This document shows positions 12,481 through 55,407 of a stretch of 64,000 nucleotides of DNA, piece after piece. This DNA comes from Octopus vulgaris (Eukaryota). The notes below the pieces were generated by a model, which ran no database searches, was not told the origin of the DNA, and saw only the letters and a list, made by a program, of their open reading frames with translations. Location of the stretch: contig OX597816.1 in NCBI GenBank assembly GCA_951406725.2, positions 133,052,001 through 133,116,000 on the forward strand, in the 5' to 3' direction. Numbering within the stretch: the first letter of the stretch is position 1; every line of letters begins with the position of its first letter. Made by a program: the position numbers and the translations under genes.

Positions 12481-14929
12481 TATGTCCATCTTTTAATTTT
12501 ATTTAACAGTCATTAATTTTATGTTAGTATTGGTTGGGAAGGAAAAAACAACAACAACAACAACAATGAAAGCACTTCTGTTCTTTGGTCATTTTCTAAT
12601 TATTGTTTTATCAGTTTTTTAATTCTTTGATTGTATTTGACAATTCTTCTCATGTCAAGTGTTACTTGATTACTTTTGATCATAAATCTTTGATGTTGTC
12701 TATCAGTCAATGTCTTCCATAGATATACAAAGATGTTTTTGAAGAATGTGATTTATTTAACATGAAACAATGTCAAAAATTCATAGCATTATTCATAGGA
12801 TGCAGTTATCATCTATAAAACTTCTGACCATCTTTCATGTAACTACATCCATCCTGTAGTTACACCGCAAGCATTGATTTAAAAGTGTCTGTCTTACATA
12901 CTGAATATTGTCACTGACATTACTGAGGTTATAATAAAGATCTCTATATAATGAATATTATATTTTGTTGTAGTAATATATGTCAGTACTTTAATGAATC
13001 AGTCTGGTACACAACTGTAAAGAAAGTGGTTACAAAATTAGCATCACTCTTTACATTTACTTTCTAATAAAGATATTGATTTGACTTGTCTGCAAGACAA
13101 ATTCTCACAATTTCTTTTTCCTGATGCTGGCACCTTTATTATTTGCTAGATATGTTAGGCCAGTGCTAAATATTTTGTTTCACTCAATTGTCTATGTCAA
13201 TATTTTTATCTGAAAAAAATAATTTCATTAAAAAAATTTTTCCGTTTTGAAAAGAAGCCATGAAATAGTAGTTAAAATTTGTGTGGGAGTGTATGAGAAA
13301 AATAGCTTTGTTAATGTCTTATTTTATAATGTTGCATCCAAGTTATTGATTTAAGTGATGTATCATTTATGACCCACTCAAATCTAATAATGTATTATTA
13401 TAGACTTAGTGGATTAAACAATTTAATGGCTGACTCCTTAATGGTAGATGATTTACAGTTTGGAAAAAAAAAGAAGATTCAATCAATATATTGATATCAA
13501 ACATTTCAATTTTAAATGATTCCATCCTCTCGCCAGTTATATATGCACCATGCCTTTACGTCAGATTGTGCTGTTGTGGACACTAGTACGTCACAAAGGC
13601 TCTTGTCTGTTTATTGAAATGTGGGTGAGTGAATAAACTTATTATAGGCTGTTGAATATCATAAAAGCACTGATGCTTCAGACTCCAGACTATTGTATAC
13701 TATGGAGGAATTCATGTCAGACACTACATGACTAAAACACGTTATGGATATTTGTACATTAATAACAGCCATTTTCACTTCTTCTGCCTAAAAGCAGTTT
13801 AATTTGCTGAAAATAGCATCCATTTCCATTTCAAGATTAAATGGTTGCTTCAATAATTCATTGACAAGTATCAAAAACAGGAATGATTCACTCATTTTGT
13901 TTTAGCTCAGACTGGAAGTGGTATGATTATTAAAAATAAAAGTCAAATAGCAAATTAGCCATATATACATGTATGTGACTCTATATGGTATTGAGTAAAT
14001 GGTGAAGCCTATCTGGAGTCACCCAACCAGCTAAAAATAATAGCAAACACTCCCTCAAGTTATATCATACTCTCTTAAAAAAGGAGCATTATAGAAAGTG
14101 TTATTTATAACATGATAATATTATACATCTTATTGTATTATATTGGTTTCAAATTTTGGCACAAGGTCAGTCATTTCAAGAAAGGGGCTAAGTTAATTAC
14201 ATCAATCCCAGTGCTCAACTGGTACTTGTTTTATTGACTCCAAAAGGATAAAAGGCAAAGATGACCTTGGCAGAATTTGATCTGAGAATATAAAGATGAA
14301 CAAAATGCCCCTCAGCATTTTGCCTGGCATGCTAATGATTCTGCCAGCTCGCTGCCTGGCCTTATTGTATAATATCAAAATATAATAAGGTAATATCATA
14401 ATCTTATAATATGATATAATAAGATGTGATATGAAAGGGATAAGTGCAATATGCATCTTTCAAATATAAGCACTTGAGAAGGGTATGCCTACACCTACTC
14501 TTCTCTGACCATATTTTATATTATTGTATTATTATCATTATTTTAATGTTTTTTCTATGATTGCTTGTTTATGCCTGTGTATATAAGTGTATAAACATAT
14601 ATGTATGTGTAGATGTGTATGTATATATGTGTATATATATACATGCACATATATACATGTAAACTTCCTAGACATCATGTTAGACTTCGGCTTCAGTTCA
14701 TTCAGCCCTACTGCAAACCAAACAAGAGGCTGTCCTATATCAGCACAGCCTCCTGCCACCCACGTATTATGTTCAGGATCCTAGTGATGGATGTCAGCAA
14801 AAGGATCTCGAACTTGTCCTCAAATCAGGAAATTTTTGATGACCCCTCTATTAAAACAAGGCCTACAAGGTCAACCACACAGTATAGTAGGGTCAGATGG
14901 GCACCATCTGTGAGTAAAACAGTACCATG

Positions 14930-15602: not shown

Positions 15603-17128
15603 TGATGTCAACAAGGGTCACAGCCCTGATGGCATACACCCACGGGTTATCAAAGCGTTGGCTCCGGTCATCTGTGAGCCCTTAACACGTCTATTCAATA
15701 TGTCATTGGCGACGGGTGTTATACCTGCGGACTGGAGAACAGTGATAATCTGCCCAATTTTCAAGAAAGGGAGCCGCGAAGACCCGCTTAACTACTGACC
15801 GGTTTCCCTTACATCAATAATCAGCAAGATATTCGAAACCATCCTTGAGAAAAGTATGATGCTCCACCTCCAAAACACAGCCTCTATCTCTGATTCCCAA
15901 CTCGGCTTCGTGCCGAAGAGATAATGGAAGAATTGGTGACGCGCATCCTCGATGATAGTGATGCTTTTGACATCGTTTTATTGGACTTTGCCAAAGCTTT
16001 TGATTCAGTAAACCACCGCCTATTACTTGTCAAGCTTCAAGCATATAGTTTTCATCCGGATATTGTACGATGGGTTGGTGCCTTCCTCTCAGACCGCTCC
16101 TTCCAAGTCCAAGTTAATGGTTCGCGGTCCGACGTCTCCAGTGCGAGCAGTGGCATGCCTCAAGGTTCAGTGCTTGGGGCCTTATTGTTCTTAGTCTTCA
16201 TAAATGACTTGCCTGACGACTTCATGCAACACACCCTTCTATTTGCCGACGATGTCAAACTGGTCGCTCCTCGCGTTGATATAGTGGATCTTCGTCGATG
16301 CCTCCACCAAATTTGGAGATGGTCTAACGAATGGGACCTGTGTCTCAATGTGTCAAAGTGCTGTCATCTGCCTGTTGGCTCTCCTCCTGCAACTCAACTT
16401 GATTTCAAGCCGGGTCGTCTGCTGCTGGAGAGGACCAATCAGGTAAAGGACCTGGGTATCTTGGTGGATTCCTCCTTTTCGCCTTCGGCCCAGTGCGTCC
16501 ATGCTGCCAACAAAGCACGCAGAATTCTGTTCTTGATTTGATGGTCATTCGGAATGCTTATAGCAGCCATATTCCTACCACTCTATGTCACGCTGGTGAG
16601 ACCCATATTAGAGTACGGGATTCAAGCCTCTTCTCCTTATCTCCTCAAAGACATACAGCATCTCGAAAGAGTCCAGAAGCTGGCTACCCGCATGGTCCTT
16701 GGTCTCAAGAATTTGTCTTATGAAGAAAGGCTGAAGACGCTCGACCTTTATTCTCTAGAAAAACGACGACGCCTTGGAGATCTCATTCTTGCTCACAACA
16801 TCATAAGTGGAAAGTGTAACCTCTCGAAAGAGCTGTTCTTCACTCCTGCTCCAGAGCGTCGGCTGCAGGGTCATTCCGAAAAGCTCTGTCTACGATGATT
16901 TCATCTTAATCGAAGGAGAGGGGCTTTCTCTGTCCGGGTTGCGGATCCGTGGAATAAGCTGCCAGACGAGATGGTGAAGATGCCGACGACCGCTCAGTTC
17001 AAAGTCTCCCTTGACTTCAAGTGGCCTGAACTCTTTACATGAACACCACCCTGTACATAACTCCATGTCCCCCTACATGGCCTTGCTTTTTGCTTTTTGA
17101 GCCAAAATTAACTAACTAACTAACTAAC
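15603..17128 (+). mobile_element. 5'-truncated CR1-group LINE (RT pseudogene) with (ACTA)n tail
   Basis: PDGIHPRV, LDFAKAFDSVNH, GMPQGSVLG, LFADDVK, VKDLGI and SYEERLKTLDLYSLEKRR; stops and frameshifts; inserted into a family C copy that resumes at 17129. Confidence 0.92.
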
Positions 17129-20320: not shown

Positions 20321-21200
20321 ACGATGATCTGAAACTCAACTGACGATAGAAAGCTCTGAATGACTCGTCCTTGTTTTTTCCTGTCCTTTTTTCTATCATC
20401 TAACTGTCCGAATGTTTTGTTGTCGTCTGTTACATTCTTGTTCCATTTTTTTGTCTTCTTTATATATCATCATCATCATCATCGTTTAGCATCCGCTTTC
20501 CATGCTAGCATGGGTTGGACGGTTCATCTGGGGTCTGGGAAGCCAGAAGGCTGCACCAGGCCCAGTCTGATCTGGCAATGTTTCTACGGCTGGATGCCCT
20601 TCCTAACGCCAACCACTCATATATATATATGAAAACACAGACACACACACGCATACATGCACATATATATATATATACACACATATATCTACATCTGTAG
20701 CTATCTATCCATATGTGTATGTATCGTTACTGTTTCCAATTTTATCTTCGTCTCTTGTTTTCCTATTCGTCTCTGTTGTCACATTCTTTCCTTCTACCAA
20801 AGAAATCTAATGCCCATAGCTTAGCTTTTCCTTGGGGCTGGCCGTTTTGGAGCAAATCTCAGAATTAAACAGCCGAAATTTGCCATGATGAATCGGTTTC
20901 TGACTGAAGAATGAAGGCTCTGAATGACTGTCTGTTTTCCGTGTTCGTCAATTCGTGTATTTCACGTTCTCTATATATAAAGTTTTATTCTATATATATA
21001 TATATATATATTATATAAAAGGGCTTAGTAAAATAAATTACTTTGCCGCATACTGAACTCATTAGAAATAGCAGCTAAAAAACTTTTTTAAAGCTATTTC
21101 TAATACTTAAAGAAAATCTCTCTCATATATAGTGTTTGCTTAATTCAACTCACAAAAGTTTGGGGGTAAGGACATCAATAAATCAAATGCTAAGGTTATT

Positions 21201-21252
21201 TGAGAACGTACGTTTCAAGATTAGTCAAAACAACACTTCTATCATCAGCTCA
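21201..21252 (-). ncRNA. Minimal type-I hammerhead ribozyme motif (copy 1)
   Basis: Reverse complement reads TGAG-CTGATGA-stem II-GAAAC-GTAC-GTT-CTCA. Confidence 0.72.
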
Positions 21253-21746
21253 GAAACTCCTTGGTTTGGATTTGGAAACACTGAAAGTAAGAACATACCC
21301 TTTCGAAGATCCGCTCGTAACTAACAGTGCCAACAAACCCAAATAAGCAAGCGAAGAATTTCTGTTCTCCCCTTTCCACCAGCGTGGGTTAAAATCATCA
21401 AACACTATGCTTATTTCGGTAAAATCCGAAGCAATTAATTAGAGGGAGATTAATTATAATTTCAACAATTGAGGGTAAAATTAATTAATTATTAATCAAT
21501 TTCACCAAGTGTTCAGTATGCAAAGGGACCATTTAAGGCGAATTCAAATTATTACATTATATAAAAGGGCTTAGTAAAATAAATTACTTTGCCGCATACT
21601 GAACTCATTAGAAATAGCAGCTAAAAAACTTTTTTAAAGCTATTTCTAATACTTAAAGAAAATCTCTCTCATATATAGTGTTTGCTTAATTCAACTCACA
21701 AAAGTTTGGGGGTAAGGACATCAATAAATCAAATGTTAAGGTTATT

Positions 21747-21798
21747 TGAGAACGTACGTTTCAAGATTAGTCAAAACAACACTTCTATCATCAGCTCA
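21747..21798 (-). ncRNA. Minimal type-I hammerhead ribozyme motif (copy 2)
   Basis: Same motif 546 bp from copy 1. Confidence 0.72.
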
Positions 21799-22296
21799 GA
21801 AACTCCTTGGTTTGGATTTGGAAACACTGAAAGTAAGAACATACCCTTTCGAAGATCCGCTCGTAACTAACAGTGCCAACAAACCCAAATAAGCAAGCGA
21901 AGAATTTCTGTTCTCCCCTTTCCACCAGCGTGGGTTAAAATCATCAAACACTATGCTTATTTCGGTAAAATCCGAAGCAATTAATTATATAATGTAATAA
22001 TTTGAATTCGCCTTAAATGGTCCCTTTGCATACTGAACACTTGGTGAAATTGATTAATAATTAATTAATTTTACCCTCAATTGTTGAAATTATAATTAAT
22101 CTCCCTCTAATTAATTGCTTCGGATTTTACCGAAATAAGCATAGTGTTTGATGATTTTAACCCACGCTGGTGGAAAGGGGAGAACAGAAATTCTTCGCTT
22201 GCTTATTTAGGTTTGTTGGCACTGTTAGTTACGAGCGGATCTTCGAAAGGGTATGTTCTTACTTTCAGTGTTTCCAAATCCAAACCAAGGAGTTTC

Positions 22297-22348
22297 TGAG
22301 CTGATGATAGAAGTGTTGTTTTGACTAATCTTGAAACGTACGTTCTCA
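22297..22348 (+). ncRNA. Minimal type-I hammerhead ribozyme motif (copy 3)
   Basis: TGAG CTGATGA tAGAAGTgttgttttgACTaaTCTt GAAAC GTAC GTT CTCA: stem I TGAG/CTCA, palindromic ACGTACGT stem III region, GUU site. Confidence 0.75.
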
Positions 22349-22630
22349 AATAACCTTAGCATTTGATTTATTGATGTCCTTACCCCCAAACTTTTGTGAG
22401 TTGAATTAAGCAAACACTATATATGAGAGAGATTTTCTTTAAGTATTAGAAATAGCTTTAAAAAGTTTTTAGCTGCTATTTCTAATGAGTTCAGTATGCG
22501 GCAAAGTAATTTATTTTACTAAGCCCTTTTATATAATGTAATAATTTGAATTCGCCTTAAATGGTCCCTTTGCATACTGAACACTTGGTGAAATTGATTA
22601 ATAATTAATTAATTTTACCCTCAATTGTTG

Positions 22631-22689
<59 letters not shown>

Positions 22690-27791: not shown

Positions 27792-28000
27792 AAATAGAAA
27801 GATGAATAATCTTGTAGCAGATTAATCAAAAGTTTAACCGATACCTTGGTAGCAAAAATCACAGCAGAAGACAGCACGGTTGGAGGTACAACCATATGGT
27901 GTTGCAACCGTGCGTTGGTGCGGATAATTGAATTTTAATATTATTAGCGAATTGAAGAAATGGAGCTGAACGAAGATTGAACAGAAATCGTTTTATTTCA

Positions 28001-28080
28001 TTCTACACGTGTTTCGAAAGGCACAATTTACCAAAATCCGATTGAATAATGAGACCATATTGTGTCTTTCTCTTCAGGAA
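28001..28080 (-). ncRNA. Minimal type-I hammerhead ribozyme motif
   Basis: Reverse complement: TTC CTGAAGA GAAAGACACAAT-loop-ATTGTGCCTTTC GAAAC ACGT GTA GAA; 12-bp stem II with one mismatch, palindromic ACACGTGT, GUA site. Confidence 0.85.
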
Positions 28081-28178
28081 GAAATAGGAAATCCGTTGGA
28101 AAAAACAAAAACAGAACAGAGGCGGAGCAAAACAAATCGAACTAGGCTCCTAAGAGCCCATGGTCAAACCATGTGTCT

Positions 28179-28258
28179 TTCCTGAAGAGAAAGACACAAT
28201 ATGGTCTCATTATTCAATCGGATTTTGGTAAATTGTGCCTTTTGAAACACGTGTAGAA
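28179..28258 (+). ncRNA. Minimal type-I hammerhead ribozyme motif (second arm)
   Basis: TTC CTGAAGA GAAAGACACAAT...ATTGTGCCTTTT GAAAC ACGT GTA GAA. Confidence 0.82.
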
Positions 28259-28694
28259 TGAAATAAAACGATTTCTGTTCAATCTTCGTTCAGCTCCATT
28301 TCTTCAATTCACTTATAAATATATATATTATCATCATCATCATCATCGTTTAGCGTCCGTTTTCCATGCTAGCATGGGTTGGACGGTTCTACTGGGGTCT
28401 GTGAAGCCAGAAGGCTTCATCAGGCCCAGTCAAATCTGGCAGTGTTTTTACGGCTGGATGCCCTTCCTAACGCCAACCACTCCGTGAGTGTAGTGGGTGC
28501 TTTATGTATGTATATATCGTCATCATCATCATCATCGTTTAATGTCTGTTGTCCATGCTGGCATGAGTTGGACAGTTTGACCAGAGCTGGCAAGCTGGGG
28601 AGCTGTACCAGGCTCCAGTCTGATCTGGCATAGTTTCTATGGCTAGATACCCTTCCTAATGCCAACCAATTTACAGAGTATGCTGGATGCTTTC

Positions 28695-37334: not shown

Positions 37335-37949
37335 AGGCATGGCTATGTGGTAAGAAGCTTGCTTCTGAAGCACATGGTTCTGGGTTCAGTCCCACTGTGT
37401 GGCACCTTCTACTATAGCCCCAGGCCATCCAGAGCCTTATGAGTGGATTTGGTAGAAGGAAGCTGAAAGAAGCCAGTTGTTTATATATATATATATCCAT
37501 TTGTAATAACAAAATATGAACTCTTATCAGGATTTACATACCATGGAGAAAAAGCATTTCTACCCATTCTACACAGCAATTTCCTTGGATAATGGAACTG
37601 CAACTGTAACATCCTACATATATCTTTATTTTTACTTTTATTCTCTTATTTCCCTTTATACTTCCTATATCCATCCTTTTCCAAAATAACTCCTTATATT
37701 TTCCTCTATTTAATTCTCTCATATCATCTCTGATGAAGGGATATCCCTAATATCCAAGAAACAATTGTAAGACTAACTTTCTCTTTATAAATGTCCTAAA
37801 AATTGTTGTCTCATTTTATTTAACATGTACATGCTCACACAAGACCCGCATTAGGCTCCTCATTCTTATTACTATCGAACTGAGAGTCTAACTACGCTCC
37901 TTCCATAGCACTTACATAGCCTATCCAGCCATCCTGGGTCTTCTGGACA

Positions 37950-43114: not shown

Positions 43115-44600
43115 GAATCGAAGGGCCTTAGAGTCAACCTAGCTAAAAGTCCTAATAAGTAGGAAGGTAGACAAGTCACAAATGCCTTCAGGTAGATGGC
43201 CTTGCTCGATCTGTTGGAAAGGCATAGGTAGAAACTCTATAAGATGCACCAAGTGTAAGCTATGGACACACAAGAGGTGCAGCAACGTCAAGGGAAGGCT
43301 AACTAGGAAGATAGTTTTTGTATGTGGCAGATGCTCAGGAGCAATAAACACTGAAAATGTGCAGAGAGCAACTTCCGCCACATTCCAGGGAGAAAAACTA
43401 GAAATAGTTGATAGCTTCCGTTACCTAGGTGACCAAGTCAGTAGCGGGGGCAGGTGTGTTGAAAGTGTAACTGCTAGAGTAAGAATAGCTTGGGCAAAGT
43501 TCAGAGAGCTCCTACCTCTGCTAGGGACAAAAGGCCTCTCGCTCAGAGTAAAAGGCAGACTGTATGATGCATGTGTACGAACAGCCATGCTACATGGCAG
43601 TGAAACATGGGCCGTGACTGCTGAGGATATGCATAAGCTTGCAAGAAATGAAGCCAGTACGCTCCGATGGATGTGTAATGTCAGTGTTCATACTCGACAG
43701 AGTGTAAGTACCTTGAGAGAGAAGTTGGACCTAAGAAGCATCAGTTGCAGTGTGCAAGAGAGACATTTGCGCTGGTATGGCCATGTGGCGAGAATGGATG
43801 AAGATAGTTGTGTGAAAAAGTGCCACACCCTAGCTGTTGAGGGAGTCTGTGGAAGAGGCAGACCCAGGAAAACCTGGTACAAGGTAGTGAAGCACGACCT
43901 TCGAACTTTAGGTCTCACTGAGGAAATGACTAGAGACCGAGACCTTTAGAAGTATGCTGTGCGTGAGAAGACCCAGCAGGACAAGTGAGACCATAACCCA
44001 TGGACTCAGTCCACTTATGCATACCTTTCATTCTTGGGACACAAAACTCTACTTGTGAAGACCTGTTGAGGCAAGTGAAAATCAAAAAATCAAAATCAAA
44101 AATCAAAATCGATCAACATGAATGGAAATTGTAGCTGTGATACCAGTGCCGGTGGCACATAAGAGAACCATCCGAACGTGGTCGTTGCCAGCGCTGCCCC
44201 GACTGGCTTCCGTGCCGGTGGCACGTTAAAAGCACCATCCAATCGTGGCCGTCTGCCAGCCTCGCCTGGCCTCCTTGCCGGTGGCACATAAAAAGCACCA
44301 TCCAATCGTGGCCGTCTGCCAGCCTCGCCTGGCCTCCTTGCCAGTGGCACGCAAAAAGCACCATCCGACCGTGGCCGTTTGCCAGCCTCGTCTGGCACCT
44401 GTGCCGGTGGCACGTAAAAAGCACCCACTACACTCATGGAGTGGTTGGCGTTAGGAAGGGCATCCAGCCATAGAAACATTGCCAGATCAGACTGGGCCTG
44501 GTGCAGCCTTCTGGCTTCCCAGGCCCCAGTCGCACCGTCCAACCCATGCCAGCATGGAAAGCGGACACTAAACGATGATGATGATGATGATGATGATGAT
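43115..44600 (+). mobile_element. RTE LINE 3' portion (RT C-terminus with PHD-like insert) and full 3' UTR
   Basis: ORF 43182-43949: CSIC..CTKC..WTHKRC..CGRC, VDSFRYLG, RVRIAWAKF, LHGSETW, LRWYGHVARM, GRGRPRKTW; then 63-bp repeats and a (GAT)n tail. Confidence 0.92.
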
Positions 44601-54308: not shown

Positions 54309-55407
54309 TCAAGCTTCAAGCACATAGTTTCCATCCGGATATTGTACGATGGGTTGGTGCCTTCCTCTCAGATCACTTGTTTTAAGTCCAAGTTAATGGT
54401 TCGCTGTCCGACGTCTCCAGTGCGAGCAGTGGCATGCCTCAAGGTTCAGTGCTTGGGCCCTTATTGTTCTTAGTCTTCATAAATGACTTACCCGACGACC
54501 TCACACAACACACCCTTCTATTTGACGATGATGTTAAACTGGTCACTCCTCGTGGTGATATAGATGATCTTCGTCGATACCTCCACCAAGTTTGGAGATG
54601 GTCTAACGAATGGGATCTGTGCTTGAACGTGTCAAAGTGCTGTCATCTGCCTGTTGGCTCTTCTCCTGCAACTCAACTTGATTTCAAGCTGGGTTATCTG
54701 CTGTTGGAGAGGACCGACCAGGTAAAGGACCTGGGTATCTTGGTGGATTCTTCCTTTTCGCCTTTGGCCCAGTGCGTCCATGCTGCCAACAAAGCACGCG
54801 GAGTTCTGTTTTTGATTCGACAGTCATTCGGAATGCTCACAGCAGCCATATTCCTACCGCGCTATGTCACGCTGGTGAGACCCATATTGGAGTATGGGAT
54901 TCAAGCCTCTTCTCCTTATCTCCTCAAAGACATATATCATCTTGAAAGAGTCCAGAAGCTGGCTACCCGCATGGTTTTTTGGTCTCAAGCATTTGTCTTA
55001 TGAAGAAAGACTGAAGACGCTCGACCTTTATTCTCTAGAAAAATGACAACGCCATGGTGATCTCATTCTTGCTCACAACATCATAAGCGGAAAGTGTAAC
55101 CTCTCGAAAGAGCTGTTCTTCACTCCTGCTCCAGAGCATTGGCTGCGGGGTCACTCCAAAAAGCTCTATCTGCGACGATTTCATCTCAATCGAAGGAGAG
55201 GGGCTTTCTCTGTCCGGGTTGCGGATCCATGGAATAAGCTGCCGGACGAGATAGTGAAGATGCCGACGACCGCTCGGTTCAAGGTCTCTCTTGACCAGGA
55301 ATGGCCTGAACTCTTTGCATGAACACCACCCTGTACATAACTCCATGTTCCCCTACATGACCTTACTTTTTGCTTTTTGAGCCAAAAAATTAACTTAACT
55401 TAACTTA
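54309..55407 (+). mobile_element. Second 5'-truncated CR1-group LINE copy
   Basis: Collinear and highly similar to 16029-17128; MPQGSVLGPLLF, LFDDDVK; (ACTTA)n tail; splits a family D SINE. Confidence 0.92.

Follow-up and report, generated by a model that had tools for sequence, protein, structure and literature searches.

A young non-coding 546-nt hammerhead repeat of Octopus vulgaris, probably inserted in two-armed form by a Penelope-like enzyme

Analysis of a 64,000-nt stretch of Octopus vulgaris DNA (hereafter the window) indicates that its segment 21011-22638, bounded on both sides by (TA)n runs, is very probably a single recent insertion, in two arms, of a non-coding 546-nt repeat; the repeat bears a hammerhead motif and was likely copied in trans into (TA)n by a Penelope-like RT-endonuclease. 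Unit coordinates q1-546 denote the reverse complement of 21011-21556, i.e. the hammerhead sense. The features of the locus are the following:

20991-21010, no strand: left (TA)n target remnant
21011-21556, minus strand: full 546-nt unit (q1-546), whose 3' end is the fixed end E1
21201-21252, minus strand: hammerhead motif 1, type I with 2-bp stem III and palindromic loop; predicted cut after 21205
21455-21660, minus strand: conserved structured 3' domain with E1 and E2, comprising a hairpin, an E1-enclosing helix and an AU hairpin
21557-21987, minus strand: 5'-truncated upstream unit (q116-546, 431 nt), head-to-tail with the full unit
21747-21798, minus strand: hammerhead motif 2, situated upstream of motif 1 at a distance of 546 nt
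21985-22536, plus strand: inverted arm, q539-546 (8 nt) and a 544-nt full unit
22297-22348, plus strand: hammerhead motif 3, inside the inverted arm
22537-22638, plus strand: tail (q1-102, ~100 nt), stopping at the fixed end E2 and present on one arm only
22635-22683, no strand: right (TA)n target remnant

The minus arm thus reads q116-546 followed by q1-546 (1.8 head-to-tail units), the plus arm (21985-22638) reads q539-546, the 544-nt unit and q1-102 (1.2 inverted units), and the truncated 5' ends of the two arms meet with a 3-nt overlap at 21985-21987. Self-comparison at a shift of 546 gave 431 matches among 433 positions, as against 114-147 at other shifts. The first copy differs from the second by one substitution, and from the third by one substitution and two single-base gaps; the three hammerhead motifs are identical, with CTGATGA starting at 21248 and 21794 on the minus strand and at 22301 on the plus strand. 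No ORF of at least 120 aa overlapping the element was found. The preliminary description of this DNA had proposed a young, multi-copy, non-coding 546-nt unit present about three times at near identity, with the same hammerhead motif in every copy and same-sense motifs exactly 546 nt apart on the minus strand, and all of this is borne out here.

The genome searched comprises 2.8 Gb in 227 contigs. A similarity search with the unit yielded 1,190 candidates, and in the 40 that were scored the full-length units are 97-100% identical. The 44-nt hammerhead core in its youngest form has 126 exact genomic matches against none for a control, so its recurrence is not due to chance; the 16-nt 3' half of the hammerhead has 2,170 exact matches genome-wide (control: 3), while exact E2 and E1 ends with TA number 801 and 455, respectively. 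The family is dispersed over many contigs as monomers to multimers with two common ends and differing junctions, and its subfamilies are ~80-100% identical with unit lengths of ~545-570 nt. For detailed analysis we used 129 distinct insertions, 69 of them obtained via unit similarity or the core pattern and 60 from E2 matches on contig C1, taken in order; 20 further hammerhead loci and the insertion L311 were added to these. Excluded before counting were L097 and L105 (a duplicated segment of L098), the repeats L108 and L109, overlapping loci among L002-L030, and the second insertion in L117, and in the analysis of variants L066 and L197 fell under the 95% filter.

Several members of the family deserve a separate mention. 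A 562-nt variant of the young unit occurs in L063 (on both arms), L066 and L073, and the array of L184 shows a recurrent internal deletion (q83-236) alternating with full units. L097, L098, L101 and L105 represent a single insertion within a segmental duplication, found three times with 2, 4 and 6 units; an empty paralogue of this site exists, and the 5' junction lies outside (TA)n. In the C24 arrays, the 5' flank that is not TA turned out to be a duplicated, unrelated segment for which an empty paralogue exists. At least half of the words of the unit are found in each of 20 public sequencing runs from 10 studies, none of which is recorded as RNA. The unit is covered by assembled contigs from four putative RNA runs, and one contig in each of two studies, from such putative RNA runs, spans the predicted cut; these contigs carry no strand, end, level or circle information and the family is multi-copy, therefore we do not count them as evidence.

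The most diagnostic feature of the element is the footprint of an inverted arm with a tail. Two arms are present in 86 of the 129 insertions, in all cases with the 3' ends pointing outward. E1 corresponds to q546 and E2 to about q98-102, i.e. the two are ~100 nt apart, and the two-armed insertions comprise 80 E1/E2 pairs, one E2/E2 pair and five cases with a broken end, so that E1 is paired with E2 in 80 of the 81 insertions with both ends intact. The E2-anchored part of the sample cannot reveal E1/E1 pairs; among loci not selected by their ends, E1/E2 pairing was found in 36 of 41 two-armed insertions and like-with-like pairing in none. (TA)n flanks are present on both sides in 119/129 insertions, and the longest arms reach 6 units (3,306 nt). 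Penelope-like features on record (PMC8557442) are partial tandems, an inverted copy truncated at its 5' end, and a tail of 30-40 bp on one side, and (TA)n targeting has been reported for Hydra and Naiad (PMC8557442). The octopus element has the partial tandem with an inverted 5'-truncated copy, the tail with two 3' ends, and the microsatellite target, and because 80 of the 86 two-armed insertions pair two fixed 3' ends ~100 nt apart, we regard its footprint as the Penelope-like "tail". Purified protein of Poseidon cuts and extends both DNA strands (PMC11167929), and its reverse transcription starts at two internal RNA sites, the gap between which is the tail (PMC11167929).

Both fixed ends lie in the domain at 21455-21660, which is well folded (z -7.2; z -5.0 for its counterpart in a sister family, termed here family B), contains the stretch of the unit with the highest conservation and is ~75% alike in family B. 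One of its helices (q36-46/q499-509) exhibits a G-C to A-U change. This structured 3' domain may be the docking site of the RT. The consensus fold of the whole unit contains six two-sided changes among 158 pairs, compared with 2-4 in 12 column shuffles, a weak signal, and the monomer circle folds far better than its shuffles (z -5.9, 0/40).

The hammerhead motif has type I topology, with a 4-bp stem I, a bulged stem II, a 2-bp stem III with a palindromic loop, and GUU at the cut. In the numbering of PMC4209133, positions 10.1/11.1 are U.U, A.A or U-A, i.e. there is no G10.1-C11.1 pair; at position 7, U, A and C all occur, and two loci have A at position 17, variation which the fold allows. Across 33 full units (82-100% identical) the core and stem are invariant at 24 of 27 positions compared with 253 of 448 elsewhere, and only 4% of 27-nt windows are equally conserved; since the core is conserved, the motif is likely under selection as a ribozyme, as judged from sequence comparison. 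The 12 named pairs are standard in 276/276 cells with one two-sided change. Covariation among the genomic copies is not significant within the family (164 of 500 shuffles reach the observed level). The hammerhead search that the preliminary description had suggested came out negative as well, with no hammerhead family among 49 Rfam matches in the window at E up to 5; the top match, MIR7533, only mirrors the palindrome and was discarded. In a 53-nt piece the monomer hammerhead is predicted to be unstable (+1.2 kcal/mol compared with -6.6 for a competing hairpin), and the duplex formed by the palindrome is stable (-9.8 to -11.6 kcal/mol), a combination that fits a dimer model. Li et al. ask for a hammerhead fold below -5 kcal/mol (10.64898/2026.07.22.740005); the same piece folds at -6.6, but as a hairpin, not as a hammerhead. 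Activity of the ribozyme is predicted only for a dimer or in the presence of an assisting protein. Minimal hammerheads of Penelope-like elements (PLEs) cleave weakly, low activity having been measured for the dimer model (PMC4209133), of 9 retrozyme dimers from frogs 8 failed to cleave (10.64898/2026.07.22.740005), and cleavage is unnecessary for Poseidon insertion in vitro (PMC11167929). We find it somewhat more probable than not that the octopus hammerhead does cleave.

Hammerhead-like motifs were also found elsewhere in the window. A short two-armed inverted element at 27941-28318, with arms 98% identical, has one such motif per strand; the cores, at 28077 (minus) and 28182 (plus), possess GUA and a palindromic loop III, and the element is probably a retrozyme or the end of a PLE. 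A single minimal hammerhead-like motif with a palindromic loop III and GUA lies on the plus strand at 37720-37775, ~190 nt from (TA)n. An ORF with a weak match to the PHD finger is located at 43143-43949, within a repeated element.

In order to characterize the template of the insertions, we compared the variants and the 5' ends of their arms. Among variants that are shared between loci, 95 are fixed within the insertion, 3 are partial and 25 are confined to a single unit (72 young insertions); 17 further fixed variants are private to one insertion, and 11 of these span both arms. As variants are mostly fixed within an insertion, one haplotype usually feeds both arms, which fits a circle and also a uniform multimer. 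RNA editing fixed into the copies was rejected as a source of the private variants, since the 17 comprise 5 A>G and 3 T>C changes and hence show no excess. Four insertions (L077, L100, L115, L116) contain partial variants common to both arms, which one monomer circle cannot give and which call for a mixed multimer or later conversion. The preliminary description had envisaged a hammerhead-released 546-nt monomer or circRNA as the form that is mobilised. The arm 5' ends are not enriched near the predicted cut (q345-360; 7/215, with ~6 expected), hence a hammerhead-cut monomer is not the usual template, and the 3' ends fall on two internal sites and not on the cut. At q293-299 the 5' ends form a cluster (6/63, 0.8 expected). 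No promoter element of the U1/U2 type was found on the unit, and an snRNA-type promoter was rejected: a profile of four U1/U2 upstream types reaches at best 2.1 on the unit, whereas the training sites score 20-26, and shuffles do no worse than the unit in 239 of 300 cases. The U1 and U2 genes themselves (L281-L310) share a short motif ~58 nt upstream, likely the proximal sequence element of the host.

In short insertions the two arms often mirror each other exactly. The two starting points are no more than 15 nt apart in 23 of the 38 sub-unit insertions (3.4 expected; 0/20,000 permutations) and in 3 of 53 multi-unit insertions (3.9 expected), the latter set being partly selected for long arms; for this contrast Fisher's test gives p 9e-9 (91 E1/E2 insertions). 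Later symmetrisation is not favoured as the origin of the mirrors, because the multi-unit insertions are without symmetric junctions. L311, which is outside the counted sample, is a multi-unit exact mirror and fits a linear multimer or fold-back. The simplest reading is that two RTs copy one RNA, stopping together at a real 5' end and otherwise running on independently. Whether the RNA in question is circular we regard as close to an even call, leaning slightly towards the negative.

Taken together, these features suggest the following course of events. Tandem arrays would be transcribed, with predicted release of monomers through the hammerhead and possibly their circularisation. A borrowed Penelope-type protein would bind the structured 3' domain and cut both strands of a TA repeat, after which reverse transcription would begin at E1 for one of the two DNA ends and at E2 for the second, with one RNA, uncut or re-ligated at the hammerhead, serving as the template. 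If the 5' end of the RNA is close, the two copies would both terminate at it and a mirror insertion would result. Where the template is a long multimer or a circle, each arm would extend on its own, in many cases over several units. As a more specific conjecture, which we offer as doubtful, a single Penelope RNP would meet two template states: an asymmetric RT dimer on a single RNA would always assign E1 and E2 to opposite DNA ends, 5'-ended RNA would yield exact mirrors, a 546-nt circle made by the hammerhead would yield independent arms of up to 6 units, and the invariant, atypical GUU hammerhead, which resembles that of the co-resident Hydra element, would be a protein-assisted switch. If true, this two-state reading would be genomic evidence, of a direct kind, that an enzyme of the Hydra clade retrotransposes animal retrozymes by the rolling-circle route.

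Two other views of the template have to be weighed against this course. According to the classical retrozyme cycle, cleavage is efficient, the product is a 546-nt monomer circle and every insertion is a rolling-circle copy. Arms of up to 6 units, the haplotype uniformity of insertions, the rarity with which multi-unit arms share a 5' end, as expected for an endless template, and two insertions that fit a once-nicked monomer (L070 and L267) all agree with it, and circles have been shown for retrozymes of coral, mussel and axolotl (PMC7229834); it is hard to reconcile with the cross-arm partial variants in four insertions, the multi-unit mirror L311, a mirror arm longer than one unit (L208), and the predicted weakness of the hammerhead. 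We consider this cycle a genuine possibility, though short of probable. Alternatively, linear read-through multimers would be the sole templates and the hammerhead a slow or dispensable passenger, with the inverted arm arising by fold-back of the first cDNA and central deletions later making long palindromes asymmetric. Such a scheme would explain the almost loop-free junctions of the 23 short mirror insertions and the variants of L116, which fit one multimer read in register, and it agrees with the dispensability of cleavage for Poseidon in vitro (PMC11167929). The conservation of the core, which implies selection on the ribozyme, argues against it, as do three of the four cross-arm cases, which misfit the fold-back register, and the E1 arm, which in 38 of 80 insertions is too long to copy the E2 arm without large one-sided deletions. 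We judge fold-back on linear multimers rather unlikely.

The identity of the repeat as a unit in its own right can also be questioned. Most Penelope copies are truncated (PMC8557442), and the 150 insertions analysed compare with 801 exact E2 ends, hence the copies could be 5'-truncated pLTR ends of an unsampled autonomous PLE. What speaks against such a parent is that upstream of E1 the 546-nt unit recurs, up to 6 times, that an ORF joined to the element is absent from all 149 insertions, that no tandem of 2.5-4 kb appears among the hammerhead spacings listed for contig C1, and that the subfamilies of 545-570 nt have diverged as whole units; this origin is very unlikely. Misassembly, or growth of a satellite through unequal crossover, is hardly credible: palindromes beside (TA)n are hard to assemble and the copies differ mainly by homopolymer gaps, but the family occurs on many contigs with two constant ends and different junctions, the unit is contained in 20 public runs of 10 studies, and one insertion has an empty paralogous site. 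A two-armed insertion of a non-coding repeat, copied in trans, remains our preferred interpretation of the locus.

The enzyme would have to be supplied by another element, and two candidate families were considered. The first, Hydra-717, encodes a 717-aa protein with the RWK, DKT and CxCX5C motifs, which Craig et al. give for Hydra (PMC8557442). A Pfam search of this protein produced no match, and in its nearest atlas clusters PF26215 is found in 25-38% of members. Copies are without stops in 55 of the 63 scored and are 97-100% identical. Hydra-717 insertions have the same build as those of the 546-nt unit, with ends 71 nt apart that are paired in 7 of the 8 cases with both in view, and their hammerhead-like motif exhibits GUU, U at 11.1 and a CCGAAGA core. 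This autonomous, very young and intact family, with a 2,589-nt unit and with tandem and inverted copies, was observed in L062 (5265-7600) and L121-L150. The second family (Neptune-781) encodes a 781-aa protein comprising an RT and, at its C-terminus, a GIY-YIG domain, which we take to be Neptune-like on account of its linker cysteines, and is located in (TA)n; in L093-L096 the 781-aa frame is preceded by a frame of 333-479 aa. Within the window, a fragment at 14659-14924 is 41-47% identical to the Hydra-type protein, and two RT fragments (PF00078) are present at 15894-16541 and 54386-55003.

No sequence similarity was found between the unit and the Hydra-717 ends or the Neptune-781 loci, and in a blastx comparison neither PLE protein gave a significant match to the unit. 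Linkage of the copies to RT and GIY-YIG ORFs, another check named in the preliminary description, turned out to be absent: 0 of 149 insertions, including the 20 further hammerhead loci, are joined to a Penelope ORF, and the nearest fragments are at least 351 nt away. We accordingly reject the element as an autonomous PLE, there being no ORF in it and no joined RT and GIY-YIG ORF. Of the proposal of Penelope-type mobilisation in trans, the part concerning the mode of insertion is upheld by the Penelope-like marks, while no joined ORF points to the protein responsible. As the unit shares no sequence with either family and no insertion is joined to a PLE ORF, the partner can only be inferred, and Hydra-717 is our first guess, by age, target, build and type of hammerhead. 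A search for a parent among 30 GIY-YIG loci was likewise fruitless, the one match (73-75%) being the non-coding sister family B. The ~594-nt unit of this family has only the 3' 200 nt in common with the 546-nt unit (77-78%), and its hammerhead is characterized by a 6-bp stem I, different stems, G10.1-C11.1, GUA, a different palindrome, and an extra nucleotide that is kept. In L180 (650-1680) and L173 we observed family B copies ~95% identical, with 1,800 candidates and a canonical PLE-type hammerhead with a long stem II.

Comparison with known systems reveals that the element works like an ORF-less PLE and also falls under the sequence definition of an animal non-LTR retrozyme, a kind that has already been described (PMC7229834; 10.64898/2026.07.22.740005). 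In the openly accessible literature on octopus hammerheads and Penelope elements and on twin priming and pLTRs, we did not find this family. Like the animal non-LTR retrozymes (PMC7229834; 10.64898/2026.07.22.740005), it consists of non-coding tandem units of low GC with a type I hammerhead in each, dispersed as monomers to multimers, and Penelope-like mobilisation has been proposed for both; its 546 nt fall within the unit range of 51-972 bp of Li et al. (10.64898/2026.07.22.740005), whose sample of 35 species comprises insects and a coral as the invertebrates (10.64898/2026.07.22.740005). The retrozymes tested so far have canonical hammerheads, units of ~300 nt and demonstrated circles, whereas the 546-nt element has a Penelope-type short-stem GUU motif and is known from sequence. 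Homology to pLTRs was described for 24 of 57 frog families (10.64898/2026.07.22.740005) and none was found for the octopus element in the comparisons with Hydra-717, Neptune-781 and 30 GIY-YIG loci. Its insertions are mostly two-armed; the word "inverted" occurs 0 times in PMC7229834. A plant LTR retrozyme, with type III hammerheads in LTRs and a 4-bp target duplication, was rejected as a match, given the type I topology, tandem units and (TA)n flanks.

On the Penelope side, the element resembles those of the Hydra clade and non-autonomous Chlamys elements, e.g. MRC1 (PMC8557442), in its partial tandems, inverted 5'-truncated arm, tail at one end, (TA)n target and hammerhead near the 3' end. 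It differs from Hydra-clade elements in that the 546-nt unit is without an ORF and shows no homology to the ends of Hydra-717 or Neptune-781, and its tail is longer, ~100 nt as compared to 30-40 nt (PMC8557442) and to 71 nt in Hydra-717. With Poseidon of Anolis (PMC11167929) it has in common that the tail is delimited by two internal start sites of the RT and that the target is AT-rich; in vitro Poseidon extends both DNA strands and does not need the hammerhead (PMC11167929), and, as described there, it shows no strand difference in the use of start sites (PMC11167929), whereas the arms of the octopus element use different sites in 80 of 81 cases. The hammerhead resembles the minimal, small-helix-III hammerheads of metazoan PLEs (PMC4209133) in having a stem I of 4 bp, a longer stem II with a bulge, a stem III of 2 bp with a palindromic loop, and a predicted dimer, but lacks their conserved G10.1-C11.1 and has GUU, not GUA or GUC, in most copies.

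Since the kind of element is known, the gain lies in mechanistic detail and not in a new system. Penelope-type RT acting on RNA circles has been proposed as the copying route of retrozymes, and the origin of the tandem, inverted and tail structures of Penelope has been stated to be an open task (PMC8557442). The octopus genome offers a non-coding 546-nt substrate with hundreds of young insertions and two sharp start points alongside an intact candidate enzyme family, and this combination of substrate and co-resident enzyme makes retrozyme copying and the Penelope build testable together in vitro.
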